Below are positions 1 through 45,781 of a stretch of DNA of 45,810 nt, one piece after another. This stretch comes from a virus (taxonomy: Duplodnaviria > Caudoviricetes), in IMG/VR virus record IMGVR_UViG_3300033232_000051, positions 1-45,810 of that record, one strand, 5' to 3'. The notes beneath the pieces are model-generated. The model saw only the letters and a list, made by a program, of their open reading frames with translations. It was not told the DNA's origin and did no database searches. The translations under genes and the position numbers were made by a program. The first letter of the stretch is position 1. Every line of letters starts with the position of its first letter.

Positions 1-261
1 CTGGGATTAATATCCCTGTTGTTGTGGTTACATTACTTGCACCATAAAACACGTCTGTGTCGCTCACATTATAGATTATAATTGTTCTACGACCAACTTG
101 TTCAATTGTCGGAATTAAATAAGCAATATTCAATGTTGTTAAGGTTACTGCTGTTGTAACCATTGTTGTCAAAGCATTTGTATTGGTTATAAGTGTATCT
201 TGTTTTGCTGCTGTAGCTTTCCCAGTAGTATCACAAACAGTTATCTTTCCGTCAATACTTG
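1..261. repeat. Direct repeat, copy 1 (exact 1-127 = 30501-30627; diverged similarity continues to 261/30761)
   Basis: Direct comparison of both copies; first mismatch at 128/30628, scattered mismatches until similarity ends at about 261. Confidence 0.97.
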
Positions 262-1000
262 AAAGTGTGGTTTCAGATGCCATATTAGATGTTCCATTTG
301 TTTCTTCTATACTAACTTTTAAATTCCCACCTGCAGTAGAGTCAATCGGTGTGAAATATCCGTCTGGTTTTTGTGCAGTCAAGACGGCTTTAACTAACTC
401 GGCGTCATCTTGTGGAGAAATTAAATCATTAATTCGGTGACTGCTGGGCTTAACATAATACGGTTTCAATATGGTCTGCAATCTGAAATATGTCTGTGCT
501 GTTCCGCCATTAGTATACACAATTCGATAATATCGCGCAGCTGGTTGAAACGAATAAACCTTTGCATCTCCTGCATTGATGGTATACACATCGCCGTCGT
601 CCCAGGTAATTCCATCTACTGAAAATTCAATTTTAAATCCGTCAGTAGCTGACGTATGGCTCGCGGTTACCATAACTTGAATAACACCGAAATTCTTGAT
701 GTCTTCTGCCTCTCCTGTGAATACACCACCAACCAATAACGGTGTATTGGTGCTATTAACTAACGATACATGTCCAGGACTGAATGTAACTAATCCTTTA
801 TGACCGTCACAAGAAATAATATCTGCTAGGTTACCTGCTGTATCTGTAATCTGTGTCTTTTGACTACCATTTGTTTGGTTTTCTTGTGTAGCTGGATTTA
901 AGACTGTGCCAGAATCGTTCACAACAGTCACTCTCTTAGAACCCGATGTGTCTATATGTTCAGATTTCGTGCATTCTTGACTATTCTTTGAAGTTACCAC
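1..1000 (-). CDS. Virion accessory/spike-like beta-rich protein; runs off the window edge and is completed by 30500-30409 if segment A is circular (363 aa)
   Basis: Manual translation: GTG at 1000 after an AAGGTG SD-like motif, open to base 1 (MVTSKNSQEC...TTTGILIP). Continues in frame with AGGKDAIDC...LEMK*. Absent from the ORF track. Confidence 0.8.
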   Translation of the reverse strand, partial: MVTSKNSQECTKSEHIDTSGSKRVTVVNDSGTVLNPATQENQTNGSQKTQITDTAGNLADIISCDGHKGLVTFSPGHVSLVNSTNTPLLVGGVFTGEAEDIKNFGVIQVMVTASHTSATDGFKIEFSVDGITWDDGDVYTINAGDAKVYSFQPAARYYRIVYTNGGTAQTYFRLQTILKPYYVKPSSHRINDLISPQDDAELVKAVLTAQKPDGYFTPIDSTAGGNLKVSIEETNGTSNMASETTLSSIDGKITVCDTTGKATAAKQDTLITNTNALTTMVTTAVTLTTLNIAYLIPTIEQVGRRTIIIYNVSDTDVFYGASNVTTTTGILIP

Positions 1001-1002
1001 AA

Positions 1003-3183
1003 CTACACCTTCTTAGCAATGAATGTGTGTCTACTTTGATAATGAGACACTGGCGCAAGTGGATTGACCGTCCAGTCTGGAAAATATTTCTTGGACACCC
1101 TGGTCAATATACTCACATAATCATCCCAGGACACGCCAGACTTGGTTAATTGTTTGATTTCCTTGGATGCCTGGGTGGTTCGGTTATCATCTACACCGAT
1201 ATGATAATATTTGTAAGTCTCGCCAGTCTTGTCATATTGAACCTTACGTGATGCCACACTTATCTTGGTGGTCTCAGTCCTTGCAATGTTGCGCAACCTG
1301 GACTCAATCGCTGTGGTGTTCTCTTTCATGGCTTCAACTATGTTATTTATGCTGAAACCCTCTTTATTATCATACGCCAGGACAACTGCATTTTTTAACT
1401 TTTGGCTTAGTTCCTCGCTCATATTAGCAAACGCTTCCTGGTATACTGGTTCTCTCTTAAGGGCCTCAACCACGTTCTTATCAACATCAGTATATGTAAA
1501 TTCTCTACCGATATCCTTGCCCAGGTCTTGCATGGCTTTTCTATATATCGCCTTAAGTTTACTACTACTCTTGGACTTGATAACGCTATCAAAATCTTTA
1601 ACCGTCTCTCTAATCTTAGCATCCAACTCAGCAGTAGTTGGTCGTGTTTTAGAATCAAACTTGCTCAACAGTTTCTCAAGCTCATGTAACAACGCATTCT
1701 CTAGTTGTTTCTCTTGCTTTGCTTGAATAGGGTCGTTTTTTTTTATACTCTTACCCAGGCTCTTACCCATGTCAAAGAATGAATCTTGCGCAACGTTCTG
1801 GATTGTAACCTTACCAGCACCGAATGAAAACTCACCAGTCTCGTTCATGGCAACCTCAATCCCCAGCTCAGCCGTAGCCTTAGCAATCTGGATATCTTTC
1901 AACCGCAAATCCTTCTCGTACACTTTATCCTGGTCTCTGCTTGGATTTAATATGATTTCATAGTCTGAAACACCTAACTGCGCACACACCCAGGGTAATA
2001 TCTTCTCGTTATATATACTCTGCCCCATCTCAACCCCACGGTCGGTGACTTTAATCTGTAATCCCTCGTTGTTCAGACCACCACCCTGACTCGTATCATT
2101 CTGGAATATTGGCGACACATTAAATACTGACCCAATCTGGGTGCGTATTTCGTTCCGCACCTCAGAATATTGCATCTCTTGTAAATTGCGCATGAAATCT
2201 ACCCATTTAATAGGGTCTTTACCATCACCAGATTGATGAATAAGCGGATTAATAGCATGTGGATTCTTGCGCACTTTTTCAATGAATGCGTCCCAGAATG
2301 TCCAGAAACCCTGAGCATTACTTGTATTAACTGTCAATATACCTTTAGGTACTTTGTTTCCAGAATAATATTGTTTGATGTAATAATCCATGTTAATGAG
2401 AGTTATTGTTTTGTTATACAAAGAATACAGTGGACTGAAACCGTAGGTTTTTGTTGGATGATACTTGGATACGTGTAATATCTCACTTGTGTCATAATAT
2501 GAAAAACTACTCGTCTTACCACCCACTCGCACCTTGTAACATGCTCGCATGTTTTTTATTCCGTTTGTATTGTGAGTGTCCTGTGTAATCTCAGACCTAT
2601 TTTCTGGGTCAAAGAATACAGGTTGACCGTCTGAGTTATGCGCCAGACGGTTAGTGGAATCAAAAACCATCTCAATACTTAGCGGGTCTACCCTTAGGAA
2701 CTCCTGAACCTCCGCACCGATAATTTCGTTATATCCATTAACCAGGAAGTTCTTCCGTGCGAATAGATAAGCGTCATCCACAATATTCAAATCGTTCTCA
2801 ATTTCCATGAGCACCTCTTTAAGTGTCTGGCTGTTAGAGTTAGCCTTGCGCAATAAATCCTCAACCTTTTTAATCTGCGCGTCGTTCTCAAACGTGGTCG
2901 TGTTTTTGCAATTAAAGCCGTTCCTGAAGATTTCACTTTTAAGTGTGTTCAATACGTTTTGTAATATGTCAGAATACACACTAAGTTGATACAACTCAAC
3001 CACACCAACCCTAGTGTCAAAGATACCCCATGATTGTGTCTTGTCCAGGCTGAAGAAACTATTCTCATCCTGTGGTCGCAAATAATTCTGAATGACTTTA
3101 AGATCTTCAGCACCTTTTGTCAAACTTTTAAAATCTGATGACTTGACTATCTTAAAATTTTTAACCAAATTAAATAATCCCAT
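1003..3183 (-). CDS. Portal protein (A) fused to a C-terminal Mu gpF/SPP1 gp7-like minor head domain
   Basis: Portal motifs (EILHV..YGFSPL; YYSGNKVPKGIL; EMQYSEVR..IGSVFNVSP); C-terminal RNIARTET, DDNRTT, HYQSRH; lies downstream of TerL. Confidence 0.88.
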   Translation of the reverse strand: MGLFNLVKNFKIVKSSDFKSLTKGAEDLKVIQNYLRPQDENSFFSLDKTQSWGIFDTRVGVVELYQLSVYSDILQNVLNTLKSEIFRNGFNCKNTTTFENDAQIKKVEDLLRKANSNSQTLKEVLMEIENDLNIVDDAYLFARKNFLVNGYNEIIGAEVQEFLRVDPLSIEMVFDSTNRLAHNSDGQPVFFDPENRSEITQDTHNTNGIKNMRACYKVRVGGKTSSFSYYDTSEILHVSKYHPTKTYGFSPLYSLYNKTITLINMDYYIKQYYSGNKVPKGILTVNTSNAQGFWTFWDAFIEKVRKNPHAINPLIHQSGDGKDPIKWVDFMRNLQEMQYSEVRNEIRTQIGSVFNVSPIFQNDTSQGGGLNNEGLQIKVTDRGVEMGQSIYNEKILPWVCAQLGVSDYEIILNPSRDQDKVYEKDLRLKDIQIAKATAELGIEVAMNETGEFSFGAGKVTIQNVAQDSFFDMGKSLGKSIKKNDPIQAKQEKQLENALLHELEKLLSKFDSKTRPTTAELDAKIRETVKDFDSVIKSKSSSKLKAIYRKAMQDLGKDIGREFTYTDVDKNVVEALKREPVYQEAFANMSEELSQKLKNAVVLAYDNKEGFSINNIVEAMKENTTAIESRLRNIARTETTKISVASRKVQYDKTGETYKYYHIGVDDNRTTQASKEIKQLTKSGVSWDDYVSILTRVSKKYFPDWTVNPLAPVSHYQSRHTFIAKKV

Positions 3184-3206
3184 TATAAGATAAACCTCAT
3201 CTTGTT

Positions 3207-3221
3207 CTTATATATGTAACT
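3207..3221 (-). promoter_or_regulatory. Putative late promoter AGTTACATATATAAG (portal)
   Basis: Identical 15-mer at 24383-24397 and 27677-27691, each 23-24 nt upstream of a structural gene ATG. Confidence 0.75.
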
Positions 3222-3938: not shown

Positions 3939-5288
3939 CTAAAAATTGACATCCAGGCTTTGTCCCACGTGAAACTCTTCCTTGACACCAACCTCGAACA
4001 CCATGCGCATCATCAATGCATCTGAAAAGTCTGTACTTCTACCCAGGTTTTGTTTCATTATATCCTTGCCAATAATAGACAACTTGCCATCCTTGTCCGC
4101 ATCCTTTCTGGTTATCTGTTCCAGGTCTTGAATCAACTTCTCCTTGATTTCAATGTTATCCACACCAAAATATACTTTGTTCTCCTCAACCATCTGCGCC
4201 AGTTTGAAGTAACATTGAGATTTCAAATTATAATAGTTGTCTCCTGCAAGTGCTCGTGAACCATTCACAAACCCAGTACACCCAGGTAACTCGTCACAAA
4301 GCCCTCCACCGACTCCATCCTCATCAATCACGATATGACTACGTGGCACCGAATATGTCTCGGCTATCTCGTTTATGGTTTCTCGTATCTGTTTTATCAA
4401 ACTTATATCGTATATATACGCCCTGTCAACCCTCAGACCGGACCAGAGATATATCACACATTTGTCTGAACCCTTACGGGCTACATCACAGGTTATGTAC
4501 CGTTCACCATATTCAACAAAGGTGTTCGTGAACATGTTCAATATATCGTCATACTTGAACAATTTGTTCAAGTCATCGTCATATTCCCAGTTACCATATA
4601 GAAGTCGTTCTTTTGACAACTTATCTAACTTTTCAAGACTGTTTATATAGTGTTTAGACACGTTCGGGTTGTCACCGACCAAACTCTGAATAAACACACG
4701 ACCCGGTAGCAATGAACCCTCTTTATATGGTTTGTAAAATTCATTATACATCCAATTTTTAGACGGGTTTGAACAAATAAGTAACTTCGGGACCAGGCCG
4801 TTCTCGTCCAGTTTATATCTAATCCTGGACATGACAATATGTTTCGCTTTCTCAGAAATCTGTGACGCCTCGTCAATGAATGCGCCAGTATACTCTGTAC
4901 TACCCAGACTGTCAAAGTTAGGGTCGCTTGGGTAATGGAACAAATCTTTAAGCATAATCTCGCTACCATTCGCAAACGTTATGGTGGAACTGAGTGGATT
5001 AATATTAACTGTTCCCTGCCAACCCAGGCTATACACCAACTCAGTGAACGTTTTTAATGTTGACTCTTTAAGGTTCTTAAGTATGGCTCGACCCATGAGC
5101 CACCTAGTCCGGGGATATGTCTGGCACATATACAACAGCCACAGACAACCCAGAAAACTCTTACCTCCAGAAACACCGCCACCGAACACAATCTCGTTGG
5201 TTTCTGTGTCCATCAACACGCTCCAGGCTTTATTTTGTTTCTCTGTTAGTGTTATCTGCATCTGCTCCATCATCCGCCACCATATCAA
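3939..5288 (-). CDS. terL: Terminase large subunit (A)
   Basis: Walker A GGGVSGGKS, Walker B FIDEA, CSNP motif III, RNase H-like CDVA, DEDGVG and DFSDALM. Confidence 0.93.
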   Translation of the reverse strand: MIWWRMMEQMQITLTEKQNKAWSVLMDTETNEIVFGGGVSGGKSFLGCLWLLYMCQTYPRTRWLMGRAILKNLKESTLKTFTELVYSLGWQGTVNINPLSSTITFANGSEIMLKDLFHYPSDPNFDSLGSTEYTGAFIDEASQISEKAKHIVMSRIRYKLDENGLVPKLLICSNPSKNWMYNEFYKPYKEGSLLPGRVFIQSLVGDNPNVSKHYINSLEKLDKLSKERLLYGNWEYDDDLNKLFKYDDILNMFTNTFVEYGERYITCDVARKGSDKCVIYLWSGLRVDRAYIYDISLIKQIRETINEIAETYSVPRSHIVIDEDGVGGGLCDELPGCTGFVNGSRALAGDNYYNLKSQCYFKLAQMVEENKVYFGVDNIEIKEKLIQDLEQITRKDADKDGKLSIIGKDIMKQNLGRSTDFSDALMMRMVFEVGVKEEFHVGQSLDVNF

Positions 5289-5835
5289 CTATTTTAGTTG
5301 GTGTGTCCCTTATCAATATTAATTGTTTCTCCACACCAATTAAAACCTTTTCTGTTGCTTTCTCTTTTATATGAAAATTTTCCAAGAACGCAGTAAACCT
5401 GTCAAGCACCCTCAACATCAAGTCCACAGACTCCCTGCGCTCTTTAATCGATGAAGACTTCGCTAACATATACTGTGCTTCTCTGAACAATCTATCAAAC
5501 ACCACCTGAATTTTAATTCTGGTGGCATTTATGTCCTCAGGTGGCATGTCTTCATATATATCGGTTAGGTAGTTAGATATTGTCTGCCTGCGCACGTTAT
5601 ACTTCTCACCTAACGCTGTCTGAGTCAACCCAATTATTTGGCCAGACTCAACCAGCTTGGTTAATTCACCCATAATATAAAACTTATCAACCAGGGCTTT
5701 CCTACCCGGTGTTATATGTTTTTCAACGGGTTTACGTGGTTTTTTCTTTTTAATTTTTGCAGGCATATTAATCATTCCCAAACAATATATTATTATGTAT
5801 AATGTTTTATATATTTGTCTTGATTCCAGACACAC
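5230..5835 (-). CDS. Putative terminase small subunit (A), HTH-containing; true start probably near 5770
   Basis: Directly upstream of TerL; HTH-like TQTALGEKYNVRRQTISNYL followed by helical segments. Confidence 0.65.
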   Translation of the reverse strand: MCLESRQIYKTLYIIIYCLGMINMPAKIKKKKPRKPVEKHITPGRKALVDKFYIMGELTKLVESGQIIGLTQTALGEKYNVRRQTISNYLTDIYEDMPPEDINATRIKIQVVFDRLFREAQYMLAKSSSIKERRESVDLMLRVLDRFTAFLENFHIKEKATEKVLIGVEKQLILIRDTPTKIVDMVADDGADADNTNRETK

Positions 5836-7486: not shown

Positions 7487-7858
7487 CTAACACCCGAACA
7501 CTGTTAATGAGGCGCATCCTAGGATTGCGCCTTTTTCATCCCTGACTAGTTGGTCAGGGATTAAGAAATCGTTTCGGTCGGGGAACGCCTGCCCCACAGC
7601 CAAAGACACGATATACATCGTGCCTTCAACACTTTCGGGAATTTCAGCACTCCCGAAATGTTTGCTGTAAACAGGTATACCGTTTACAGTAAATATTTTT
7701 TTTCTGTCCTCAGACAGTCTTATACTACCCTCGGAAGGGTAGTTCACAACGACTTTATTTGTCGTTGTGTCTATAATCCCTACATTGTGGGGAGTTAAAT
7801 TTATTATTTTTACATTAAACGAATGCAATTGTCCATTCTTATTTATTGTATCTTTCAT
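7487..7858 (-). CDS. Conserved viral protein of the NLTPH...LVRD..G..LGC type; homologue of 42126..42470
   Basis: Strong protein and DNA similarity to 42126..42470; GGTGA SD. Confidence 0.85.
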   Translation of the reverse strand: MKDTINKNGQLHSFNVKIINLTPHNVGIIDTTTNKVVVNYPSEGSIRLSEDRKKIFTVNGIPVYSKHFGSAEIPESVEGTMYIVSLAVGQAFPDRNDFLIPDQLVRDEKGAILGCASLTVFGC

Positions 7859-8031: not shown

Positions 8032-8069
8032 AAATATATATTGTATTATATATTTATAAAGGTTTCGGT
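8032..8069 (-). promoter_or_regulatory. Archaeal-type BRE-TATA promoter (CCGAAACCTTTATAAAT) plus conserved 20-bp downstream element
   Basis: BRE/TATA consensus; the 20-mer is shared with 13944-13963 (identical) and 11205-11224 (one mismatch). Confidence 0.7.
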
Positions 8070-10372
8070 ATTTCGTCCCATTTTGTAACCTTGAGCACCT
8101 TATTGAGCGGAGTTATGATACGACCCCAATAATAAGCCTTGTCATAATCAGACCCCAACTCGTACTCTGCAACCGATATCGCCTCTATTCGTGGCTTGGT
8201 GGACTTGACAATATATTGTATATTGTCACCGACAAAGAACTCGTGACCCTGCGCAATCAAACGCTTGACCAGGACAATATGCGCCGGAATAGGCGCATAT
8301 CTTACCTCCCCGTCCTTGTTTATTTTGGGCGCGCCAGTCTTGCTGTCTATCATGGCTCGACCATACTCTCCTATAGGCTTGACAAAATTTTTGGTCATAA
8401 CTAAATGTCCTGAGTCTAACGTATTTGTCTTGATTTGCTCGGCAATTAACCGAACACCCCCTAGGAAAACGTCATAGTCAAACCGGTCATATAATATGTC
8501 CTCAATCATACCACGTTGCATGGTTGATGCCAGTGGATTAGTGTCCTTCCGAATACATTCCAGACCAGTTATACTCACCTTGAAATCACCAGTAGGAACA
8601 CCTGCACCGTCGACCAACTCCTCAATCGCTGCATAATTCTTCTTCATGATAGATATCATGCGATGGAACGTCTTCTCCCATTCAAACACTATCATGTGTT
8701 CTCGGATACCCATCTCCTGAGCCCAGATATCAAACTGAACCTTGAGAGCATCCTCAAGAACCTTGTGGTCTGAGCCCTTAAACATGATACTATCTGTGTC
8801 TCCCTGCACCACAACATATCCCATACCCTCAGCAAAGTGTCGTGACCGATTTATTATCTCCCTCGCAAACTGCGTCACAGCAGATGCAACATCAAAGTTA
8901 TACCACCGAAAATTGACAAACGCCAAAGCACCATACAAGGAGTTAGCAATGGTTTTAATTGCTTTCTCGTACAGTTGCATCTCTCGGAACCTATCTGGGT
9001 CGGATTTAATATACTGAAACTTATCATATTTAACCTTGTCACGCTCCAAGATTAACCCACGTGCCACATCGGACACTACACCCTGAATATTATTTGAGAA
9101 ATACTTCTCCCCAGATTCAACCATCTCCCCAGACCTGTACAGACTATTTGCTGGGATTACCACACACCCAGGTTCACGCCGGGATAACAATGTCGTACTA
9201 CAGATGTTACACATTGCAATCGTACTCGGATAAAATGACTTGAAATCCAGTACAAACACATTATCATGAACCCCAGGATTATCACAAAATACCTCGGCAC
9301 CCAATATCTTCTCCTTACGTCTCTCGGCAGATTCGTCAATGGTAGGTTTGCTGGGTGATATGACACCTCGCTCCCGACACTTATTTAACACCATGTAATC
9401 ACAGACGTCTGAATTGTTCATGGTATCCTGAATCAAACAATGAGCAATCTGTGCAGCTTTTTTATGTAGCCCAAACATATTTAGTTTCTGTTCCAACTGG
9501 AACATCAACTCAACGTCCTGTTCATTGTATTTCTGAAGTAATGTATCCCCGCTGAATGACTCCACCCAGGCTCGGAATATATTCCCATTCCCTGCAGTTA
9601 TACCGCCCAGTTTTCCCATATTAAGTATTTCTCGGCACACGTTATCCAGCGAATAACTCGGCAACCCCAGGACGTTCTTTTTAATTATCTCCATGTAATC
9701 CATTTTATTAATGTAATCCAGGAACAACACCGATATGTTATGTAACTCACAACGTTGGCGGATGTAGGCATCATCAAACTTCTTTCCATTCCAGGCGGAA
9801 CAAATGTCGTACTGCTCAATTACCTTTTTGTGTAACAGTAACAGGTCACACTCACCAGAATATATATCGTCCAGGTTATTATTTTTCAAATACAAAACAT
9901 TCCCGTCACAGTCCTTGTATGCTATACACAATATAGGCTCTCTTGCAATGATAACCCCACGGTCGTCCGATTCAAACAAGCCATCGTCCTTGGTCTCTAT
10001 GTCATACATGACCCATTTCAAACCCTGCGACTCCAGGTCTAACCCAGGATTGCAGGTCAGGTATCTCTTGACCGCATTCACGTCACCCTCGTATACTGTG
10101 ATACCCGCATTCTCAAGACTCCACCGCAACAAACCACGGTCTGTATTGTTGTTCAGAAATAACCCAGTGTACCCAGGAAACACTTGACTGTCCGACACAT
10201 TAGAAATCCATTGATATGACTTCTCAGGTATCAAACCCACATCAGACTGGTGGATGAATATATAATTGTAAAATGGAACGCTCTCAAAATGTGTACCTTT
10301 ATCATCTCGAACCTTAACCCAAATAAAAGTCTCTTCCTCCTTAGCGCTGACTATAGTCCTCATATATCCCAC
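8054..10372 (-). CDS. polB: Family B DNA polymerase with 3'-5' exonuclease
   Basis: Exonuclease motifs DIET, NGKKFD, YNEQD; polymerase motifs DFKSFYPS, KTIANSLYG, QGDTDS, KKNY, GLECIRKD. Confidence 0.96.
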   Translation of the reverse strand: MGYMRTIVSAKEEETFIWVKVRDDKGTHFESVPFYNYIFIHQSDVGLIPEKSYQWISNVSDSQVFPGYTGLFLNNNTDRGLLRWSLENAGITVYEGDVNAVKRYLTCNPGLDLESQGLKWVMYDIETKDDGLFESDDRGVIIAREPILCIAYKDCDGNVLYLKNNNLDDIYSGECDLLLLHKKVIEQYDICSAWNGKKFDDAYIRQRCELHNISVLFLDYINKMDYMEIIKKNVLGLPSYSLDNVCREILNMGKLGGITAGNGNIFRAWVESFSGDTLLQKYNEQDVELMFQLEQKLNMFGLHKKAAQIAHCLIQDTMNNSDVCDYMVLNKCRERGVISPSKPTIDESAERRKEKILGAEVFCDNPGVHDNVFVLDFKSFYPSTIAMCNICSTTLLSRREPGCVVIPANSLYRSGEMVESGEKYFSNNIQGVVSDVARGLILERDKVKYDKFQYIKSDPDRFREMQLYEKAIKTIANSLYGALAFVNFRWYNFDVASAVTQFAREIINRSRHFAEGMGYVVVQGDTDSIMFKGSDHKVLEDALKVQFDIWAQEMGIREHMIVFEWEKTFHRMISIMKKNYAAIEELVDGAGVPTGDFKVSITGLECIRKDTNPLASTMQRGMIEDILYDRFDYDVFLGGVRLIAEQIKTNTLDSGHLVMTKNFVKPIGEYGRAMIDSKTGAPKINKDGEVRYAPIPAHIVLVKRLIAQGHEFFVGDNIQYIVKSTKPRIEAISVAEYELGSDYDKAYYWGRIITPLNKVLKVTKWDEIPKPL

Positions 10373-27233: not shown

Positions 27234-27234
27234 A

Positions 27235-27654: not shown

Positions 27655-27676
27655 ACACTAACCAGTGATGTCTGGA

Positions 27677-31765: not shown

Positions 31766-31769
31766 AAAA

Positions 31770-33621: not shown

Positions 33622-33652
33622 GTGACCAACCTATTATTTGTTAATACCCTTT

Positions 33653-34033: not shown

Positions 34034-34047
34034 ATCGCCTTTATCAT

Positions 34048-34296: not shown

Positions 34297-34338
34297 TTAG
34301 ATTACCTCATAAAATTGGTATTAGGGAATTAACCCTAT

Positions 34339-34584
34339 TTACCATTTACCAAATACTATAGCCATACCAGCACCAGTACCAACTGAAAAAGTTATCGTTT
34401 CAGCAGACTGAGATGCTGGGTCGTTTATACCAGCAGAAGTTTTTGAGATTATCATGTCAATCTCATTAAACTCGCCAGTTGCATCTAGAGTATCTCCAGC
34501 ATAAGCTTTAGTGTAACGGTATACCCACGCATACTCACTACCTAATTCCAATCTTTTTTTAGTTATACTTGTTACAGAAGTCAT
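34339..34584 (-). CDS. Small beta-rich virion protein (possible decoration)
   Basis: Directly downstream of MCP; GGTGA SD. Confidence 0.6.
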   Translation of the reverse strand: MTSVTSITKKRLELGSEYAWVYRYTKAYAGDTLDATGEFNEIDMIISKTSAGINDPASQSAETITFSVGTGAGMAIVFGKW

Positions 34585-35706: not shown

Positions 35707-36606
35707 CTATTTCATTTTTGCTTCAACTATCATATCAACAAAACTTTTTGGTTCAGATTTAACTTCAAGTTGTGGTGAAGCATCTACCAATGGTTTCTGT
35801 TTATCAACAGCTGATACTGCTTCTGCTATCATAGATTTAATTTCGTCTTTTGAAATTTTATCTTCTTTAACAGTAGTTTCAATCTTTGATTTTATCTCTG
35901 AAAGTTCTTTATCTTTAGAAGCTAGTTCTAATTTAAGAGTTTCAAGTTGTGATTTGATTTCGTCTAGATCAGAATCAGTCATAACTTCTGGAGTTTCAAC
36001 TGTAGGTTCTGGTGTGACGATACCATCATCTACAACACCGTTTTCGTCTTCGTTGGACATATCATCTACCTCAATTTTAGATTTCACAAAGAAATCTGTG
36101 ATTTTACAAGCTTCACATGCGGGTTTGCCAGTTAAAGCAACACCACCTAGTTGTATCTTGTTTAGTACTCTTATATTTTTACCATTTATGTTAGTGTTTA
36201 TGTATTCTTTAGGTTTAAATTCCATTGAAAATGCATCAATGAAACCATCTTGGATTGAACCCCAAAGATTTTTAAATTCAGTATGGTGTTTGTTTAATTG
36301 TACTCGTATAAATAAGTTTTTGGATTTTATCTCAGCACTAATGATTTTTGCTTTAGGAACTATTGTGTTATCGCCTTTGAAATATTGTTCGTGTTCTTCA
36401 TTACCTTTCAATGCACCGGAAAAGTTAGAATCTACATTCCTACCATTAATTTGCTGTGCCATATCTTGTATACATTCTTCAGTAACCATATCATTTACTG
36501 AATCTAGATAATTAGCAACTTCTAAAATACCTTCAACATAATGATTCCCATTATCGGATTTAAATTCAAATGTATTTGGATATACTTTGATTTTTTTGAA
36601 GTCCAT
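35707..36606 (-). CDS. Prohead protease with scaffold tail (B)
   Basis: DSVND, EEH, DAFSMEF, GVALTGKPA; acidic linker and coiled coil. Confidence 0.85.
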   Translation of the reverse strand: MDFKKIKVYPNTFEFKSDNGNHYVEGILEVANYLDSVNDMVTEECIQDMAQQINGRNVDSNFSGALKGNEEHEQYFKGDNTIVPKAKIISAEIKSKNLFIRVQLNKHHTEFKNLWGSIQDGFIDAFSMEFKPKEYINTNINGKNIRVLNKIQLGGVALTGKPACEACKITDFFVKSKIEVDDMSNEDENGVVDDGIVTPEPTVETPEVMTDSDLDEIKSQLETLKLELASKDKELSEIKSKIETTVKEDKISKDEIKSMIAEAVSAVDKQKPLVDASPQLEVKSEPKSFVDMIVEAKMK

Positions 36607-36652: not shown

Positions 36653-38200
36653 TTAAAAGTTATTCATATTTTTTGTTCGTTGTTTAACATATTCTTGAAA
36701 TGGACCGTCTGATTTGACTTGAACATTCTTATCTTGTTTAACTTTATCTTGTGCGAGTTTATCTGTACTTTCAGTTAGCATTTGATGATTATTAAGTTGA
36801 TTTTGACGATTTGTACTATTACCTTGCATTATAATTTTTTCTTTATGTTCTTCAACGTCAGTATCAATCAAACCCATTTCATGTAATAATTTATCTTTAG
36901 TAAGCCGTAAATCATATCGTGCAAGAATATCTTGGTTTTTAGTTAAAGTGTCAGCTCTCATCATAGCGATTTGAGTTTCTCGCACTTCATCTTGTTTATA
37001 CGTTCTATTAAATCGTAATGTGACTTTATACTCATCTAGTAACTGAGAATTTATCATATCCTCATAAATATTTTGAATATGTCCTACCTTCCTATAATAA
37101 CCTTCGGTTGATGTATTACTTCCAGTCACACCAGTACCGACCAATAAATCACTTAGACGTGAACTAGGAATACTCCAGACCATAACCATTAATTGAGTTA
37201 GATATCTAGCAAGTTCTCTGAACTCCATATCGTGGTCCATTTTATTTAGTTCTTTGACTTCAACTTTTCCAGTTAAAACTAGATTTTTATACTTATGAGT
37301 GATGTTAGCATATTGTTGAATAGCTTTCTTCATTTCCTTGTAATCGTTATCGGATGAGTTTGCATCTTCCATTATGAACATATAATTTGGTACGCCACCT
37401 TTCCTAAAATAATATCTGGTATAATCACGGATATCATCTAAAACGTCCATAATAGTTAAAAGAGATTGTGTTGGGGAATATCCATAGACTTTACCGTTAA
37501 TACGCATTAATCTAAAGTGAACTATCTGTTCTGGAGTGAACATAACACTCTCAGCACTATTCATTGGTCTCTGGATATAATGTTGTACGTCTCCATATTT
37601 ATTAGCAGTAATCTTTATTGTTGATGATGGAATATCAATAAACTGTCGTGTGGAAAATAGGTCTTCCTCAGTTGATTTTATAACTAGTTCGGTTAAATCC
37701 GAAATGGATTTCTGTTCATAACCATTATGACGTTTCTTAATAACCCTTGTTAGACTTTTACGGAAATCTGATTTTGTAAATGAATCTTTCCAAATATAAC
37801 CGTCCCCAGTTAAAAGTGTATCTATTAAAACTGAATGTAAGATTTCTTTAGCATGGTTATCACTTAGGAATTTCTCAGCACGTTGTACGTTATTACGACC
37901 ACCTTCAAGTCTCCAACCGTCACTTATAATGTCGTCAACGATTGCAGTTAAGATTGCTTGTAATTCTGGTGATGCCTTGAAATATGCCCAAAGAGTATCG
38001 TAATCAACTTCGGGGCCTCTACCGTATGGTGTAGCTATGACTGGTGACGGATTTTCGTTTGATAACGGAAAAGAATTAGAAACGGATTTTATTTCTGTTG
38101 TATTGCTTATTAACACGTTATCATTAAATGATTTCAAACTATTAGTAAATGAATCATATACTTTTCTCAAATAAGGATTATTATTGCTATTCATAACCAT
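36653..38200 (-). CDS. Portal protein (B)
   Basis: TLLTGDGYI, FTPEQIVHF, YGYSP, YFRKGGVP, DMEFREL. Confidence 0.9.
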   Translation of the reverse strand: MVMNSNNNPYLRKVYDSFTNSLKSFNDNVLISNTTEIKSVSNSFPLSNENPSPVIATPYGRGPEVDYDTLWAYFKASPELQAILTAIVDDIISDGWRLEGGRNNVQRAEKFLSDNHAKEILHSVLIDTLLTGDGYIWKDSFTKSDFRKSLTRVIKKRHNGYEQKSISDLTELVIKSTEEDLFSTRQFIDIPSSTIKITANKYGDVQHYIQRPMNSAESVMFTPEQIVHFRLMRINGKVYGYSPTQSLLTIMDVLDDIRDYTRYYFRKGGVPNYMFIMEDANSSDNDYKEMKKAIQQYANITHKYKNLVLTGKVEVKELNKMDHDMEFRELARYLTQLMVMVWSIPSSRLSDLLVGTGVTGSNTSTEGYYRKVGHIQNIYEDMINSQLLDEYKVTLRFNRTYKQDEVRETQIAMMRADTLTKNQDILARYDLRLTKDKLLHEMGLIDTDVEEHKEKIIMQGNSTNRQNQLNNHQMLTESTDKLAQDKVKQDKNVQVKSDGPFQEYVKQRTKNMNNF

Positions 38201-38629: not shown

Positions 38630-40105
38630 TTAACACACATCAAAACTATATGAACTCTTTTTTGAATATGACGCCTCTAAAGCCATACCAAGACTCATTA
38701 CACAATCATCTTTATTACCGACACCCTCATAAGTCTCTTTCAATACCCTACCCATTAAATCCTTACGAACAACTTTTGAGAAACTGCGGAGTTCATTTAT
38801 CAATATCTCGTTATCCAATAAAATTAAAGTTCCAGTACTTAACGCAGACTGGATATTAGCTATTAATAGTTCTTTATTTGCTTGGGTTGTAATAAATCCT
38901 TTCATTACACTTTTTGTCTCTTGCATTTCCGTTAACGTTCTAACTAGACCTTTACTGAGTCCGTTCTCTTCAATTACAATCTGACGGAAGTTAAATATCT
39001 TATGAAGCTTAACAATACGTTCAATCTGTCTTTCAGTCTTCATTCCTTGATATCGTTCCAGTTTGACTATATATTGTGTTCCTTCAGGATTTACACCAAT
39101 TATCGTGTATACTGAGAAATCTGCTTTAGATTGGTCTGCAAGTGCGATATCACCACCCATATAATAAATCCAACCATCTCTAGGTTTATTTTGTATCTCA
39201 ACGTGACGATTCTCTAACAAGTTCTCAGTAAAGATACTAGAACCACCAGCCAGCGGATTACACATATATTCCCTATCAAAACGTAAGCCACCCATTAATG
39301 CACGAGTAGCTTTCAAGTTATCTAGAGACCCAAATTGTGGGTGGTCTTTCCATAACGGTGCTATCCATTTACCGTTTTTATCCGTTATAGCCGCTTGCCA
39401 TCGTCCACCGACCGGAGTAAGTCGTGCTTTTTTTAGGACTTCTTTAATTTCCTTTGAAGGGTATTGTAAATCGTTAAGTAAGTCATCTGTAGTCATCGGT
39501 GTACCTACAAGGACTATCTGACCTCTACCCATGTCACTCGCCGGGAAAATAACGTTCCAGAATAAATCTTTTACTTGGTCTTGCGTATATTTCTCGTCTC
39601 TAAGAATATCATCACAAATTGTGAAATTAGGACGTACACCACGACTTGTAGGTTTTAATGGTTTTACGAATGCCATATTACCAGTCACGGTTTCTAACTG
39701 TCTCGTGTTCCATTTCATATCCGTTCCCTCTGGACGGAGGTTTTTAAAAAAGGGGTTATTCATTATGATGTCGTGGACTTGTTTTAAGTTACTCTCAGTC
39801 TGTTCACGACTTGCACTAAACATTGCTATCTTACATTTCTTCTCACGCCAGAGTCGCCAGAGAACGTAACCAACTGAAACGTTTGTGGTTTTACCGAAAC
39901 CACGAGGTAAGATTAAATAAACGATTTGACCAGAGAAAAGGTAATTAGTCATGTCAACGTGGAATGGTGCGAACTTAATATCAAAAACGCCTTCAATGAA
40001 AACTTGAAGACTAAAATATGCTTTCTGACGAAATAATGCCTCATCAATCGGTGTTGCAAAGTTCATCATTTTTTCCCAACACCATGTATCGTAACTGAGT
40101 ATCAT
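38630..40105 (-). CDS. terL: Terminase large subunit (B); true start probably near 40069
   Basis: LPRGFGKTT Walker A, SRGVRP..ICDDI, VGTP, GGDIA, DFS, IEEN, DDCVMSL. Confidence 0.93.
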   Translation of the reverse strand: MILSYDTWCWEKMMNFATPIDEALFRQKAYFSLQVFIEGVFDIKFAPFHVDMTNYLFSGQIVYLILPRGFGKTTNVSVGYVLWRLWREKKCKIAMFSASREQTESNLKQVHDIIMNNPFFKNLRPEGTDMKWNTRQLETVTGNMAFVKPLKPTSRGVRPNFTICDDILRDEKYTQDQVKDLFWNVIFPASDMGRGQIVLVGTPMTTDDLLNDLQYPSKEIKEVLKKARLTPVGGRWQAAITDKNGKWIAPLWKDHPQFGSLDNLKATRALMGGLRFDREYMCNPLAGGSSIFTENLLENRHVEIQNKPRDGWIYYMGGDIALADQSKADFSVYTIIGVNPEGTQYIVKLERYQGMKTERQIERIVKLHKIFNFRQIVIEENGLSKGLVRTLTEMQETKSVMKGFITTQANKELLIANIQSALSTGTLILLDNEILINELRSFSKVVRKDLMGRVLKETYEGVGNKDDCVMSLGMALEASYSKKSSYSFDVC

Positions 40106-40685
40106 TTATCGTTATCTTCTTTTCATGAACTAAATCCTCTAGGAATTTCTGTGAAGCAACATTGAACTCGCTAGTCATCATAATAGAACGCATGTCATAA
40201 GTGATACTGACAGCACTTTTTAACATATCAAGCTTTTCCATAGCAGTTCGTAACTGACTATGGAACTCTCGTATAGAAATCATTAATTCTCGTGAATATG
40301 TGTCGGGGTCGGCATAGTACCGTTCAATTAACTTTCGGTTGATGCCGTGCAACCATTCAAACTCTTCGGCAACACGATTACTGGAATCTAGGATAGTTTG
40401 GACTTGTTCTTGTTGCTGGGTTGTAGTCTTTGAGATTTTATGGATATTCTTTTTCCATGTACCTAAAGTGACAAGGGTTGGGATTTTCTCAAAACCATCT
40501 TTTCGCAAAGCGTTACGGATGTACGCAGCTTTATGACCTTCAGCGATATATTTTAAAGAACGCATTTTAATGTCGTTAGAATAAGGTTCAAAAACCGTTG
40601 CATACTTGGAATCTTTAAGACGGACTTTATCTGATTTTTCTTGTCGGATTCTGGCAGCTTCAGTATTATCAGAAACTTCTACCAT
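40044..40685 (-). CDS. Putative terminase small subunit (B)
   Basis: Upstream of and overlapping TerL; HTH-like segment plus helices; has its own TATA promoter. Confidence 0.6.
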   Translation of the reverse strand: MVEVSDNTEAARIRQEKSDKVRLKDSKYATVFEPYSNDIKMRSLKYIAEGHKAAYIRNALRKDGFEKIPTLVTLGTWKKNIHKISKTTTQQQEQVQTILDSSNRVAEEFEWLHGINRKLIERYYADPDTYSRELMISIREFHSQLRTAMEKLDMLKSAVSITYDMRSIMMTSEFNVASQKFLEDLVHEKKITINDTQLRYMVLGKNDELCNTD

Positions 40686-42125: not shown

Positions 42126-42470
42126 ATGAATAATAAAAATCTAAAAATTAGAAATATGACCCCTCACGATGTGGGGGTTATAGATAAAACGACTAATAAA
42201 GTCGTTATAAACTACCTTTCAGAAGGTAGCATAAGGCTAACTGAAGAGAGAGAGTTTTTATATACTGTAAACGGCGTATCTGTTTATAGCAAAACTTTCG
42301 GGAGTGCTGAAATTCCCGAAAAAGTTAAAGATACGATGTATATCGTGTCTTTGGCGGTCGGGCAGGCCTATCCTGAGCGTACAGATTTCTTAATTCCGGA
42401 CCAATTGGTTCGGGATGAAAAAGGGGTAGTCTTAGGATGCACCTCTTTTACGGTTTTTAGTAATTACTGA
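42126..42470 (+). CDS. Conserved viral protein (NMTPH...LVRDEKG), homologue of 7487..7858
   Basis: AAGGAGG SD; homology to the A copy. Confidence 0.85.
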   Translation: MNNKNLKIRNMTPHDVGVIDKTTNKVVINYLSEGSIRLTEEREFLYTVNGVSVYSKTFGSAEIPEKVKDTMYIVSLAVGQAYPERTDFLIPDQLVRDEKGVVLGCTSFTVFSNY

Positions 42471-42477
42471 AATAGAG

Positions 42478-42660
42478 GTGTTTAAAATGGAAAGTATTTT
42501 AAAAAAAATTATCAAAATTGGAAGGTCAAAAGGGATAATTATCCCTTTTCATCTATTCAATTCTTATAAAAATATAAAGCCCTCTGATTATGTAACGGTC
42601 ACATATATCGGCACAACGGGCGATATTGTTATATCTCGGCTTGAGATAGAACAAAATTAA
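42478..42660 (+). CDS. AbrB/MazE-like DNA-binding protein
   Basis: KKIIKIGRSKGIIIP...DYVTV swapped-hairpin signature. Confidence 0.7.
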   Translation: MFKMESILKKIIKIGRSKGIIIPFHLFNSYKNIKPSDYVTVTYIGTTGDIVISRLEIEQN

Positions 42661-42667
42661 GAAAAAA

Positions 42668-42913
42668 ATGGGAAAAAAACTTTATTTAATTAAGAAAGAT
42701 GGAAGAAAAATAACAATAATTCCGTCCGGATGGATTGATTCGGATGGTGATTATTGTCAGGATATCCGAAGAAATCCGACCACAAAACGGTTTGAATATT
42801 TTAGTTATTTTACAGGTTTTGAGAAATATGCTGAATATCTGAATCTGGTATATGGTAAAACCGTAAAAGAGGTCATAGAAGACCTGGAAGAAAGATGTGG
42901 TTATATAGAGTAA
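42668..42913 (+). CDS. Hypothetical protein
   Basis: Operon-coupled ORF. Confidence 0.6.
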   Translation: MGKKLYLIKKDGRKITIIPSGWIDSDGDYCQDIRRNPTTKRFEYFSYFTGFEKYAEYLNLVYGKTVKEVIEDLEERCGYIE

Positions 42914-42957
42914 GAACATAACTTTGAAAGTTGATTATATAATAAAAGGTAAGAGAA

Positions 42958-43395
42958 ATGAAAACGATTATTAAAAAGACTGAAACAATAAATATGAAAA
43001 TATCACGGTGTCCTATTGGACTAGAGATATACATAAAAAGTCCTGTTATAGAGGACTTTTTTAAAGGTTTGGCTCAGGGTGTGGTATCCACATCAACCGA
43101 AAGTAATTGGTTACCCCATAAGGGCTATACCCCTCAGGGCAATATAGAACATATTGCCAATACCCATTTTGATAATTGGGGGGGTTCTTTAGTTCAGAAG
43201 GGATATTATAATTTGTCTATGCTCCGGACTGTTGGCTTGAGTAAAGGACAAACCTTTAGATTCAAGGGAGTGTTTTCTAAAAACATGATAGAAAACATTG
43301 CAACAGAATTTAAAACCGTCTTAATTACGCTCATAAAAAATTATGTTAAACCTATGGAAGTAACCATTAAGGTTTATAGTAATGAAATAATTTAA
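42958..43395 (+). CDS. Hypothetical protein
   Basis: Operon-coupled ORF upstream of the amidoligase. Confidence 0.7.
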   Translation: MKTIIKKTETINMKISRCPIGLEIYIKSPVIEDFFKGLAQGVVSTSTESNWLPHKGYTPQGNIEHIANTHFDNWGGSLVQKGYYNLSMLRTVGLSKGQTFRFKGVFSKNMIENIATEFKTVLITLIKNYVKPMEVTIKVYSNEII

Positions 43396-43404
43396 GGTGT
43401 TTAA

Positions 43405-44058
43405 ATGGGATATAAATATATAAATAAAATAGGTATAGAAATAGAGGGAGGTTGGATACACTCCTTTATTTTAAAATATCTAAAAGGAGATGGTTCCGTA
43501 CATATCAATAATATGAGATGTTATGATGACGACGATGATGAGGATGAGGATTATAATGAACCCTATGGGTATTCCGGCGAAGTTTGTAGTGAACCTATAA
43601 ATATTCAGGAGGGTATTGAATATATAAATAACTATTATCCCGATGAGTTTAATGAAACTTGTGGGATTCATTTCCATATATCATTTAAAAACAATAAATA
43701 CGCCTCTATATTAACAGATAAACGGTTTTATGAGATGTTTATTAAAGACTTTACTGTTTGGGGATTAAAACAGAAAATAGATTCTAGTTCTTTATTCTGG
43801 ACCCGTTTAAACGGGAAAAATCAATTCTGTAAAAATATATTTAATCCGGACGGTCAGATATTACAAAACGATAGTAGATATACACAAATAAACTTTTGCT
43901 CATTAAAAAAACATAACACAGTTGAATTTAGAGTATTTCCGGTATTTGATAAAAAGCATCAAACTGTAAGTGCTTTAAAAAAATTAGTATCTATAATTAA
44001 TAAATTTATCGATAAATGTAACAAAGAGTATTCTGAAAAAATAACAATTAACATATAA
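43405..44058 (+). CDS. Putative amidoligase (glutamine synthetase-like COOH-NH2 ligase)
   Basis: GIEIE, DGS, GEVCSEP, TCGIHFHIS, RY..IN, TVEFR. Confidence 0.85.
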   Translation: MGYKYINKIGIEIEGGWIHSFILKYLKGDGSVHINNMRCYDDDDDEDEDYNEPYGYSGEVCSEPINIQEGIEYINNYYPDEFNETCGIHFHISFKNNKYASILTDKRFYEMFIKDFTVWGLKQKIDSSSLFWTRLNGKNQFCKNIFNPDGQILQNDSRYTQINFCSLKKHNTVEFRVFPVFDKKHQTVSALKKLVSIINKFIDKCNKEYSEKITINI

Positions 44059-44074
44059 GGGGGAGTGGATAATT

Positions 44075-44827
44075 ATGTGTATAGTATTAGTATGTAAAAC
44101 AGAAAAACCTACAATGGAAATTCTCAAAAATTGTGAAGAATCAAATGGCGATGGTGCCGGGATATCATGGCGAGAAGGAAATAAAATAAAATGGTCTAAA
44201 GGACATAATGCAGAAGAGATTTATACATTAAGTCAGTCTGTTGAATTGCCTTTTATAGTTCATTTTAGATTCGCCACAGTCGGAGGTTCTATAAAGGAAC
44301 TATGTCACCCTTTTAGTGTAACAAAAGATGTTAAAACAACATTAAAAGGTAGTGCAAAAGAGGTTATAATGCATAACGGTCATTGGTCCAATTGGTCTGA
44401 AGCTTTAAAAAACAATATGATATGTTCTAGTGCTAGAATACCTACGGGGGTATGGTCGGATACACGAGCTATTGCATATTTTACAAATAGATGCGGTTCA
44501 GGATTTTTACAGATGTTAGATGAAAAGGTTGTATTGTTTAATATGAAACATATAACTATATTTGGTTCTGGTTGGACTGAAGAAGATAATGGTATTATTT
44601 ATTCAAATACAGAGTATAAAGGTCGTTATAAAAGTGTATATCGTGAAGAAAAATGGACTAATAGACACTATAGAAACGGATATTATAAAAAAAATGGACA
44701 TTCTTATGGTCAGGATTATGAAGATAATACGCTAGAAGATGAAGAAAAGGAATTTGAAACAGATAGATTGGATAAAGATGAAAAATGTAAAAATGCTACA
44801 ATCTGTATGGCGGAATATATGGATTAA
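44075..44827 (+). CDS. Class II (Ntn) glutamine amidotransferase
   Basis: N-terminal Cys2, NGDGAG, HFRFAT, HPF, HNG, SDT. Confidence 0.9.
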   Translation: MCIVLVCKTEKPTMEILKNCEESNGDGAGISWREGNKIKWSKGHNAEEIYTLSQSVELPFIVHFRFATVGGSIKELCHPFSVTKDVKTTLKGSAKEVIMHNGHWSNWSEALKNNMICSSARIPTGVWSDTRAIAYFTNRCGSGFLQMLDEKVVLFNMKHITIFGSGWTEEDNGIIYSNTEYKGRYKSVYREEKWTNRHYRNGYYKKNGHSYGQDYEDNTLEDEEKEFETDRLDKDEKCKNATICMAEYMD

Positions 44828-44839
44828 GGGGGTGTTATT

Positions 44840-45313
44840 ATGGATAAATTATTAGAAAATAAAGATGTAACTAAAACTATAAATGATTATGACTTATTAT
44901 TTGTATATGGAACTTTACGAAAATCCGGTAGTTTACATAAACTGTATTTAACCGATGCAATTTATAGTACTACAATAAAATTAAGTGGTGTTAAATTGTA
45001 TGAGTCTCAACTCCTACCTGTTGCCGTTTTGACTAAAAAGGATAAACATAAGATTAAAGGGGAGTTATATTATGTTCTTAAAACGGATATGCTCTCTATA
45101 GACAGATTAGAAAGTAGTTATAGAAAAGTTAAATTAACCGTTGCGATTAGCGGGTATAGTGAAAAACAAGAAGTTATAATGTATGTTAAAAAAACAACAG
45201 AAATTATAAATTTACAACCTTATCGTATTAAATCTGGCGATTGGATATTACATCAAAAGATTTTTGAAGATAAAGTTAATAAAATGTGTGAAGAAGAACG
45301 GTTTTGTATGTAA
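44840..45313 (+). CDS. Gamma-glutamylcyclotransferase (AIG2-like)
   Basis: FVYGTLR, GELY, IDRLE..YR. Confidence 0.9.
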   Translation: MDKLLENKDVTKTINDYDLLFVYGTLRKSGSLHKLYLTDAIYSTTIKLSGVKLYESQLLPVAVLTKKDKHKIKGELYYVLKTDMLSIDRLESSYRKVKLTVAISGYSEKQEVIMYVKKTTEIINLQPYRIKSGDWILHQKIFEDKVNKMCEEERFCM

Positions 45314-45369
45314 GACCAAAATCTATTTATACTCACAAAACAAATAACAATATAAGGGGGGTTATTAAA

Positions 45370-45552
45370 ATGAAATATAAAAATATAGAACGATTAATAA
45401 AATGGCATTACAAATACACAGAGATTTGTAAGCATAGTGCAACAGACTTTGTAAATAGATGTTTGCAAGGAAAATCTGAAATTAAAAAGCTAGAAACTAA
45501 CATAGTTTATGTGTGTCCGCCTTGTAAGGAAATGGTTGAATTGGTGGATTAA
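45370..45552 (+). CDS. Hypothetical protein (likely start MKYK at 45370)
   Basis: AAGGGGG SD as in the neighbouring genes; CPPC. Confidence 0.5.
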   Translation: MKYKNIERLIKWHYKYTEICKHSATDFVNRCLQGKSEIKKLETNIVYVCPPCKEMVELVD

Positions 45553-45781
45553 ATGGGGTTAGATATGTATTTAAAGGCTTCTAAGTTTTTTATTAATAAT
45601 GATAATGAACTCAAAGATAAACTTAAAAAGTTAATCAAGATTAATTTGGAGCCAATTAAAATAACCTTTAATGTTATGTGTTGGCGTAAATCAAATGCTA
45701 TTCATAAATGGTTTGTTAATAATGTTCAGTCCGGTGTTGATGATTGTAAAGATTATAATGTAACCATAGACGATTTGAAGG
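45553..45781 (+). CDS. Conserved phage hypothetical protein (MGLDMYL...WRKSNAIHKWF), truncated
   Basis: Recognisable phage motif; the apparent C-terminus IGRAHV* is adapter-derived. Confidence 0.7.

Follow-up and report, generated by a model that had tools for sequence, protein, structure and literature searches.

The head-tailed viruses GBV301 and GBV302 of ANME-1 archaea, members of the Ekchuahviridae, are described as circles of 72 to 81 kb, known from two independent assemblies, that carry two divergent HK97-fold major capsid proteins (MCPs), each with a protease, beside one tail set (PMC9894754). Head and packaging modules that lack tail genes are described in the cf-PICI satellites (PMC10085698). 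Overlaps of k-mer length and chimeric contigs have been described for de Bruijn (SPAdes-type) assemblies (PMC13245101; PMC5610896), chimeras being a minority of fewer than 5% of contigs of at least 10 kb in one benchmark (PMC5610896).

The window analyzed here, the whole 45,810-nt stretch of an IMG/VR Caudoviricetes record, contains two unrelated viral head gene sets on one contig, and Pfam and PHROGs profile searches revealed both modules to be real. TerL, portal, protease, and MCP are each found once in part A (positions 1 to 30500) and once in part B (30409 to 45781) (Table 1). Both proteases and TerL-B score under the Pfam cutoffs, with TerL-B matching phrog_38 at 2e-59, while both TerS genes were called from their position before TerL and neither matches a TerS family. 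The original prediction of two head sets without obvious mutual similarity agrees with the best local blastp E values between A and B, which indicate marginal similarity (MCP, 0.004; TerL, 0.063; portal, 0.002; protease, 0.006; TerS, 1.3), and the MCP phylogeny that it proposed placed MCP-A and MCP-B in separate capsid clades (support, 98/94 and 100/99). The single tail set (tube, PF18906, and tape measure) and the single replication set (family B DNA polymerase [PolB], nuclease-helicase, and primase-helicase) that it had noted both lie in A according to Pfam and PHROGs. From relatives, composition, and graph shape, we consider it very probable that the contig is an assembly chimera, a lasso of two separate tailed viruses joined via a shared gene segment; it is probably neither a two-headed virus nor a new satellite.

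Table 1. Features of the window, in order of position
Feature	Position	Strand	Basis or remark
Closing 127-mer	1..127		Identical to 30501-30627; the contig's only branch node at k = 127
A copy of shared segment (accessory gene C-terminal module)	1..261	-	10 differences from B copy, all in 128-261
A gene X, first 333 of 363 aa	2..1000	-	Last 30 aa at 30409-30500 after circle closure
A portal fused to MuF-like domain	1003..3183	-	Pfam, PHROGs
A TerL	3939..5288	-	Pfam, PHROGs
A putative TerS	5230..5835	-	Position; HTH match only
A small gene, phrog_30542	7487..7858	-	72% aa identical to B gene 42126-42470
A family B DNA polymerase	8054..10372	-	Pfam, PHROGs
A PD-(D/E)XK nuclease fused to SF2 helicase	11261..13321	-	Pfam
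A primase-polymerase, zinc ribbon, D5-type helicase	13984..16092	-	Pfam, PHROGs
A connector and tail block	17292..24360	-	Order: adaptor 23746-24360 (weak similarity and position), terminator-position gene 23219-23731, tube 22293-23198, chaperones, tape measure 20608-21735, distal tail, hub; tube and tape measure by profile, other roles putative, from order
A MCP, HK97 fold, SU10-like	25167..26258	-	Pfam, PHROGs
A prohead protease (S78-like) and scaffold	26259..27269	-	Pfam, PHROGs
A neck gene (phrog_5) and conserved 108-aa gene	27235..28016	-	Mark end of variable insert in A relatives
Variable accessory block: 617-aa, 82-aa, and 52-aa genes	28023..30408	-	Part of A circle
B 273-aa gene: B-type Ig-like N terminus, C-terminal module common to A gene X	30409..31230	-	Contains junction
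B copy of shared 261-nt segment	30501..30761	-	Sequence comparison
B accessory block: 177-aa Ig-like, 236-aa and 391-aa with apparent signal peptides, HhH protein, two small genes	31232..34584	-	Orthologous block precedes adaptor in B relatives
B MCP, SU10-like	34602..35705	-	Pfam, PHROGs
B prohead protease and scaffold	35707..36606	-	Pfam, PHROGs
B portal	36653..38200	-	Pfam, PHROGs
B TerL	38630..40105	-	Pfam, PHROGs
B putative TerS	40044..40685	-	Position only
B divergent arm, cut mid-gene: shared small gene, amidoligase-like, glutamine amidotransferase-like, gamma-glutamyl cyclotransferase	42126..45781	+	Open reading frames, Pfam, PHROGs
Adapter-like tail	45782..45810		Off contig C189

Closing the A circle yields one 363-aa frame, gene X, and protein P0005 from an independent assembly aligns to residues 3 to 363 of the closed gene (46%; E value, 2e-101). 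Together with the gene order of the relatives, this alignment bears out the prediction that closure restores an in-frame gene and a coherent order. The uncultured A-clade siphoviruses G001 (34,853 nt) and G002 (36,677 nt), both IMG/VR records with direct terminal repeats and one MCP each, have MCPs 86% and 82% identical to MCP-A and the same head-to-tail order with a variable insert after the portal. Genes of A recur in the order of the circle, 20 of them (plus one weak match) in G001 and 24 (two weak or partial) in G002, while no match to a B gene was found in either. Their replication genes differ from those of A; with these queries, PolB was unmatched in both and the primase/helicase in G001. 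Part A has the gene complement of a complete siphovirus-type member of the Caudoviricetes, with TerL, portal, HK97-fold MCP, protease, adaptor, tube, tape measure, and no sheath match in Pfam or PHROGs, and its circle closes with intact genes in the order of its family. Most likely, A is a complete circular genome of 30.5 kb that belongs to a group of uncultured siphoviruses, which are probably archaeal. By eye, an N-terminal motif of gene X resembles a motif of the gene after the portal in the A relatives.

The four uncultured B-clade siphoviruses G182, G183, G184, and G003 have MCPs 54 to 59% identical to MCP-B in the same protease-MCP order, extended to TerL and portal in three of them, and three contain the Ig-like accessory block. 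All four B-clade records long enough to check encode their own head-tail adaptor, which in G182, G183, and G184 directly follows the orthologs of window positions 33621 to 30409, and the B-to-A junction falls where these relatives have the adaptor. Whereas an adaptor and a tail of their own come next in these relatives, B in the window carries one further gene, the 273-aa Ig fusion, before it meets A. PHROGs matches in the B clade include the adaptor (4e-15), neck (3e-11 and 1e-16), tape measure (2e-5), and tail hub (2e-13), and a tube and a tape measure are encoded in three of the records themselves (G003, G182, and G183). Sequence searches of Pfam, PHROGs, and the PDB gave no match for the B-clade tube, nor did it match the A tube in a profile comparison; its identity as a tube is suggested by a low-confidence predicted fold (model pLDDT, 43), for which the structure matches listed were Hcp, tail-tube, and tail or neck assembly chains. 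G182 (40,353 nt) and G003 (45,153 nt) have direct terminal repeats, despite which CheckV estimated completeness at 34% and 29%, respectively. B is likely a 15-kb fragment of a second tailed virus with a whole genome of 40 to 45 kb. Its free end breaks off mid-gene at the adapter-like tail, which we take from motif identity to be Illumina adapter. A second A1 match in G182 was rejected as a second MCP, being a 39-codon piece within an upstream 548-aa frame. The idea that the 273-aa gene is a B adaptor with a replaced domain was also dropped, as P0002 is a full-length ortholog of its N terminus with a different C terminus. An MCP 85% identical to MCP-B, P0069, lies on a contig of 30,382 bp that probably also encodes P0002.

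The predicted exact identity of the terminal 127 nt with an internal stretch holds, and the repeat extends further, to 261 nt at 96%; its 10 differences imply that two distinct templates exist. Identity over positions 128 to 261 is 92.5%, at which a perfect run of 127 nt has a probability of about 5e-5, so that the perfect stretch beside a diverged one fits a recent real crossover as well as an assembler collapse. The length of 127 nt is the k-mer overlap of this assembly, as originally supposed: 148 suffix-prefix overlaps of exactly 127 nt occur among its 275 contigs (both orientations counted), the next class having 10. Five other contigs loop back into themselves on a terminal 127-mer, with an exact match of 127 or 129 nt in three of the five. 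At k = 127, the A and B copies collapse into a single graph node that is entered by two paths and left by one. The contig resembles SPAdes-type chimeras in a terminal repeat of k-mer length, here at the only branch node, and in the joining of co-existing viruses at a highly similar region. It differs in that the repeat returns to an internal position, so that a search for repeats at the contig ends would fail to reveal the complete genome of A.

The two parts differ in codon usage (GC3, 0.393 ± 0.005 in A versus 0.213 ± 0.007 in B) and in TCGA counts (24 of 51.5 expected versus 1 of 24.7 expected), and a Markov score changes sign near 30 kb. The stretch from 28023 to 30500 has an intermediate GC3 of 0.28 and could be assigned to neither A nor B from GC3, codon likelihood, tetranucleotides, Markov score, or restriction-site counts. 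A second gene is common to both parts (79% nucleotide identity, 7497 to 7816 versus 42138 to 42457), and GATC is avoided in both; the two shared accessory gene segments and the common GATC avoidance suggest one host pool. The shared module is likely a recent exchange between viruses with unrelated head genes.

Under the lasso explanation, the assembler would have walked from B into the shared node and once round the A loop, stopping at the closing 127-mer; low coverage is the likely reason that the exit of B toward its adaptor, tail, and remaining genes is missing, as is the other B end. A and B would each supply the terminase, portal, and capsid for packaging their own DNA, and each would assemble a noncontractile tail of its own. 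The shared segment likely passed between the two lineages through recent recombination in a host common to both, in which a modular accessory protein, probably virion associated, had its C-terminal module swapped. Counted for this reading were the k-sized overlap, the closure of A, the tailed B clade, the differing signatures, the separate MCP clades, the end of B at an adapter, and the absence of double heads from related loci: none of 82 related viral loci has two MCP, TerL, or portal genes, although these loci are at most about 21 kb and could miss a distant second head. Counted against it were the identity pattern of the repeat, the intermediate stretch, the rarity of chimeras, the shortness of the 82 loci, the low CheckV completeness of G003 and G182, and the missing B tail, which is on no other contig of G000 (contigs of at least 1 kb; 84% complete), where the rest of B had no nucleotide match and one unrelated helicase match was found.

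That the junction is instead a real molecule, formed when two archaeal tailed viruses unrelated to each other recombined within an accessory gene that both carry, appears improbable. Two terminases, portals, and capsids with one tail would then be an intermediate toward dual-capsid viruses like the ekchuahviruses, and a physical junction would show how a tailed virus can gain a second head module. In one form, slightly less probable than a real junction in general, a crossover in the shared gene of a co-infected cell joined the A circle to the whole of B in a transient cointegrate, the tail half of B being unassembled. The perfect repeat beside 92.5% identity fits this, the second shared gene and GATC avoidance point to one host pool, and the short-read graph would be the same as for two separate circles; yet the total of about 70 to 75 kb would exceed the genomes of either family (30.5 to 36.7 and 40.4 to 45.2 kb), the direct repeat would presumably allow resolution again, and no fewer lost edges are needed than for a chimera. 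A stable genome in which the B head operon exchanged its own tail for the whole of virus A, giving two capsid types and one tail, is very unlikely, even though the contig is in frame this way with the 273-aa junction gene intact, 45.8 kb is close to the size of B-family genomes, and dual MCP and protease genomes are known in ekchuahviruses (PMC9894754). Against it, the B part lacks an adaptor onto which a tail could dock, A is a self-contained unit whose closure falls exactly at k, the codon usage of A and B has not converged, and two heads occur in none of the 82 loci. The contig as assembled shares with the ekchuahviruses two divergent MCPs that each have a protease. As described (PMC9894754), however, the ekchuahviruses have a single terminase and portal, in contrast to the doubled TerL and portal here, and are known from two independent assemblies, whereas this join lies on a k-mer node and its arrangement has no second assembly.

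Searches for an independent copy of the junction gave none, although records close to the genome of the window may be absent from the sets searched: all nine window proteins found (10 looked up) are on this contig only, an exact 24-nt junction pattern had no match in a metagenome scan, the B 273-aa protein was in none of 169 candidate stretches in metagenome contigs, and P0002, portal-B, and the 617-aa protein gave no matches, while the shared domain gave two weak matches in viral contigs. Narrow phrase searches of the literature returned nothing relevant on genomes with two terminases and two portals. Least probable is that B is a head-only satellite using A tails, the alternative in the original prediction that found no support. 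Like a cf-PICI, the B part has a head and packaging module (TerS by position only) and no tail gene in Pfam or PHROGs; B is cut at both ends, however, so the absent tail is uninformative. The cf-PICI core components as described (integrase, primase, HNH, adaptor, and connector; PMC10085698) are unmatched by Pfam and PHROGs in the fragment from 30409 to 45781. At the clade level, the B relatives are 40- to 45-kb tailed viruses that themselves encode an adaptor, a neck, a tube, and a tape measure, and B ends at the point where such genes would be expected to begin.

The well-supported reading of the contig as a lasso between two co-occurring viruses makes it a caution, in that a contig of this kind conceals a complete viral genome and looks like a virus with two heads or a satellite that forms capsids; the biology left as real, the complete A genome and a recent protein-module exchange between A and B, is modest. 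The predicted single archaeal host is plausible from the two shared segments, GATC avoidance, and archaeal-virus best matches, and the host is probably archaeal; the host tests did not establish the binned methanogen as that host. No CRISPR array in G000 matches the window, B has no host flank and matches no other G000 contig, and no DpnII or D12 methylase family was found in the 84% complete bin. Among 176 kin genomes of the methanogen, MCP-B was found in none and an A-type MCP in one, at 37%; eight have short DNA matches to window positions 26000 to 45781, none in a CRISPR array. The window tetranucleotides are atypical for the methanogen, and an 11- to 13-nt motif common to A hairpins and a 62-nt host repeat is AT rich and was set aside as evidence. 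In distant, MCP-only comparisons from which no family is claimed, the best annotated matches of MCP-A are haloarchaeal HVTV-1 (HVTV-1/HCTV-1) at 35% and Methanofastidiosa virus vir519 at 28%, and that of MCP-B is haloarchaeal HHTV-2 at 26% over half its length.

A scan of the 62 window ORFs against Pfam and PHROGs found two copies each of TerL, portal, protease, and SU10-like MCP alongside a single tail set and a single replication set, both within 1 to 28016, as the original prediction had described. The two TerS genes listed with them are positional calls, and the proteins of the two head modules, previously judged to lack obvious similarity, have a marginal likeness (best blastp E values, 0.002 to 1.3). 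In a tree of 29 MCPs, the capsids of the circle-closing virus part (A) and of the second head-bearing part (B) fall into separate supported clades, each with its own relatives. A and B differ in sequence history. GC3 is 0.393 in A (0.323 for its structural genes alone) and 0.213 in the B structural arm; TCGA, with 24 occurrences against 51.5 expected in A, is nearly absent from B (1 against 24.7). The leave-out Markov score stays above zero in all 30 of the kilobase windows up to 30000 and falls below zero in 14 of the 15 that follow. The block at 28023 to 30500 is intermediate in composition and could be common to both viruses.

Bases 30501 to 30627 are identical to bases 1 to 127. The whole repeat spans 261 nt at 96% identity, with a sharp edge at 261, and its 10 mismatches all lie in 128 to 261, changing 8 codons (5 silently, 3 not). 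Because the copies differ, two distinct templates existed upstream of the merge. The contig holding the window, C189, belongs to a genome of 275 contigs totaling 1.77 Mb, among which exact suffix-prefix overlaps of 127 nt, counted in both orientations, number 148 (next class, 10); in six contigs, C189 included, the terminal 127-mer reenters its own contig. A single branch node, at 1/30501, exists in the window at k=127; followed in the direction of the genes, B and gene X of A lead into it and one path leads out. The 127 nt is thus the assembler's overlap, as had been proposed, and PMC13245101 describes a terminal 127 nt as a SPAdes k-mer artifact. At the other end, the final 29 window bases fall outside C189 and carry what we take to be an Illumina adapter motif; B's free end is therefore a dead end in mid-gene, where we infer low coverage.

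A is a whole virus. Closing the circle yields a 363-aa frame, and P0005, a related protein from another assembly, aligns to residues 3 to 363 (46%; E value, 2e-101), covering the 30 residues supplied by closure alone. Thirteen loci were fetched with MCP-A as the query. Two A relatives, G001 (34,853 nt) and G002 (36,677 nt), have direct terminal repeats, are rated 100% complete, and carry one MCP apiece. With A, G001 shares 20 genes plus one weak match and G002 shares 24, two of them weak or partial, arranged as in the closed circle and in keeping with the coherent gene order first noted; no B gene had a match in either. Six A relatives carry, after the portal, a variable insert of roughly 0.1 to 7 kb (3.5 kb in A itself) and then neck, protease, and MCP. 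A 108-aa gene precedes the neck in five of the six, and by eye the first gene of the insert opens with a gene-X-like motif in three. The A tape measure, of only 375 aa, implies a short tail.

B is a piece of a tailed virus, of which about 25 to 30 kb is probably missing. Four distinct records of the B MCP clade are long enough to check; L037, a fifth locus on a 6-kb piece, ends too early. In the B relatives G182, G183, and G184, orthologs of the B accessory block are followed by an Ig-domain head-tail adaptor 3.7 to 4.3 kb past the MCP stop, and the junction gene of the window ends 4.2 kb past the MCP stop of B itself; in G003, another B relative, the adaptor comes 10 kb after the MCP. PHROGs called adaptor, neck, tape measure, and tail hub in these relatives, G184 stopping after the neck gene. 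The tube of this clade had no sequence match; the listed matches to its low-confidence model (pLDDT 43) include Hcp, tail-tube, and tail or neck assembly chains, and four of those listed have E values of <0.001. G182 (40.4 kb) and G003 (45.2 kb) have direct terminal repeats, yet their CheckV completeness estimates are 34% and 29%. A genes had no match in G003, G182, or G183.

We therefore consider it very probable that the contig is an assembly chimera of two viruses; the dual head is in all likelihood not genuine. The k=127 node, the A circle, the tailed B clade, and the diverging composition all favor the reading preferred in the original prediction, an assembly lasso between two viruses; the assembler probably entered A's loop from B and stopped at the closing 127-mer. 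Against a chimera, B's tail was on no other contig of the methanogen bin, and the 127-nt perfect run adjoins a stretch of 92.5% identity (P ~5e-5 if divergence is uniform), which needs either a recent crossover or assembly collapse of B variants onto A. A transient cointegrate of A and B would yield the same graph, and a recent crossover could account for the perfect run; we regard the cointegrate as improbable beside a chimera.

A stable dual-head genome is less likely still: none of 82 viral loci (up to 21 kb) has two MCP, TerL, or portal genes. Narrow phrase searches of the literature listed nothing relevant on genomes with double terminase and double portal. Ekchuahviruses, according to PMC9894754, have two MCPs and two proteases with other morphogenetic genes in single copy, and their authors excluded an artifact through two independent assemblies; the window shares both duplications but also doubles TerL and portal. 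That B is a satellite we find the hardest to credit, and the cf-PICI-like head-only element once suggested finds no support, B's own clade encoding adaptor and tail genes. PMC10085698 gives cfPICI an integrase, primase, adaptor, and connector and no tails. Neither system fits the window.

Coordinates of parts, genes, and additional observations (window positions unless a locus is named)
Feature	Coordinates	Observation
Part A	1-30500	Circle-closing virus part, 30.5 kb
Part B	30409-45781	Second head-bearing part
Gene X (A)	2-1000	Completed by circle closure
B junction gene	30409-31230	273 aa
B gene triad within divergent arm	43405-45313	Amidoligase-like, glutamine amidotransferase-like, gamma-glutamyl cyclotransferase triad; no match in fetched B relatives
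B, sequon-bearing segment	32446-33621	18 N-glycosylation sequons
Adaptors of three B relatives	L108:12586-13407; L105:1-592; L110:2800-3623	Fused to N-terminal Ig-like domain; preceded by Ig-like paralogs and apparent-signal-peptide proteins
A-relative TerL	G002:C1:30174-32582	Broken near N terminus by ~1.1 kb (intron, intein, or inserted gene)
A hairpins	6182-6291; 16186-16304	Two related long hairpins, arms 42-53 nt, 84% alike; bound replication gene block at either end; possible origin, operator pair, or recombination sites
A noncoding region	6448-6610	49-nt unit, three in tandem; candidate replication origin
A AT-rich motif	8032-8065; 11181-11224; 13920-13971	Repeated upstream of polymerase-region, helicase, and SSB-position operons; candidate early promoter
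A tape measure	20939-21045	Exact 41-nt repeat, 66-nt spacing (22-aa period)
A-type head module	L111:1-14571	Portal-neck-protease-MCP-adaptor, 37-40% identity, end of 1.03-Mb Micrarchaeia MAG contig; possible provirus

The shared segment encodes a C-terminal module of about 90 to 105 aa, found on proteins with varied N termini. In the related protein P0002, a 65% match to B's junction gene covers the N-terminal 129 aa of that gene, but the C terminus is a different one; the contig of P0002 agrees in size and source with that of P0069, an MCP 85% identical to B's, so P0002 probably comes from a close B relative. Recombination with A, or with an A-like virus, likely gave B the module. A and B have a second gene in common (79% nucleotide identity), and both avoid GATC (6 of 61 and 1 of 44). 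Together with the shared module, these features point to one host pool.

The McrA of the bin (571 aa) has as its best PDB matches 1e6y and 8gf5, presumably Methanosarcina enzymes, and the bin is a methanogen. Its link to the viruses is weak. By tetranucleotides, nine of nine 5-kb contig chunks lie farther from the bin center than 97% or more of the 205 host chunks. CTAG is avoided in the bin but GATC is not, and in the viruses the pattern is the opposite. Among 176 kin genomes, MCP-B occurred in none and an A-type MCP, distant, in one. Among annotated MCPs, the best matches come from archaeal viruses; GGTGA-type motifs that complement the bin's 16S tail lie upstream of several genes. Of the single archaeal host first proposed, the archaeal part is likely and the sharing of one host plausible. 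In the methanogen bin, tandem repeats of a 62-nt family, with no spacers between them, occur about 40 times on contigs C76, C90, C99, C48, and others, often at contig ends.
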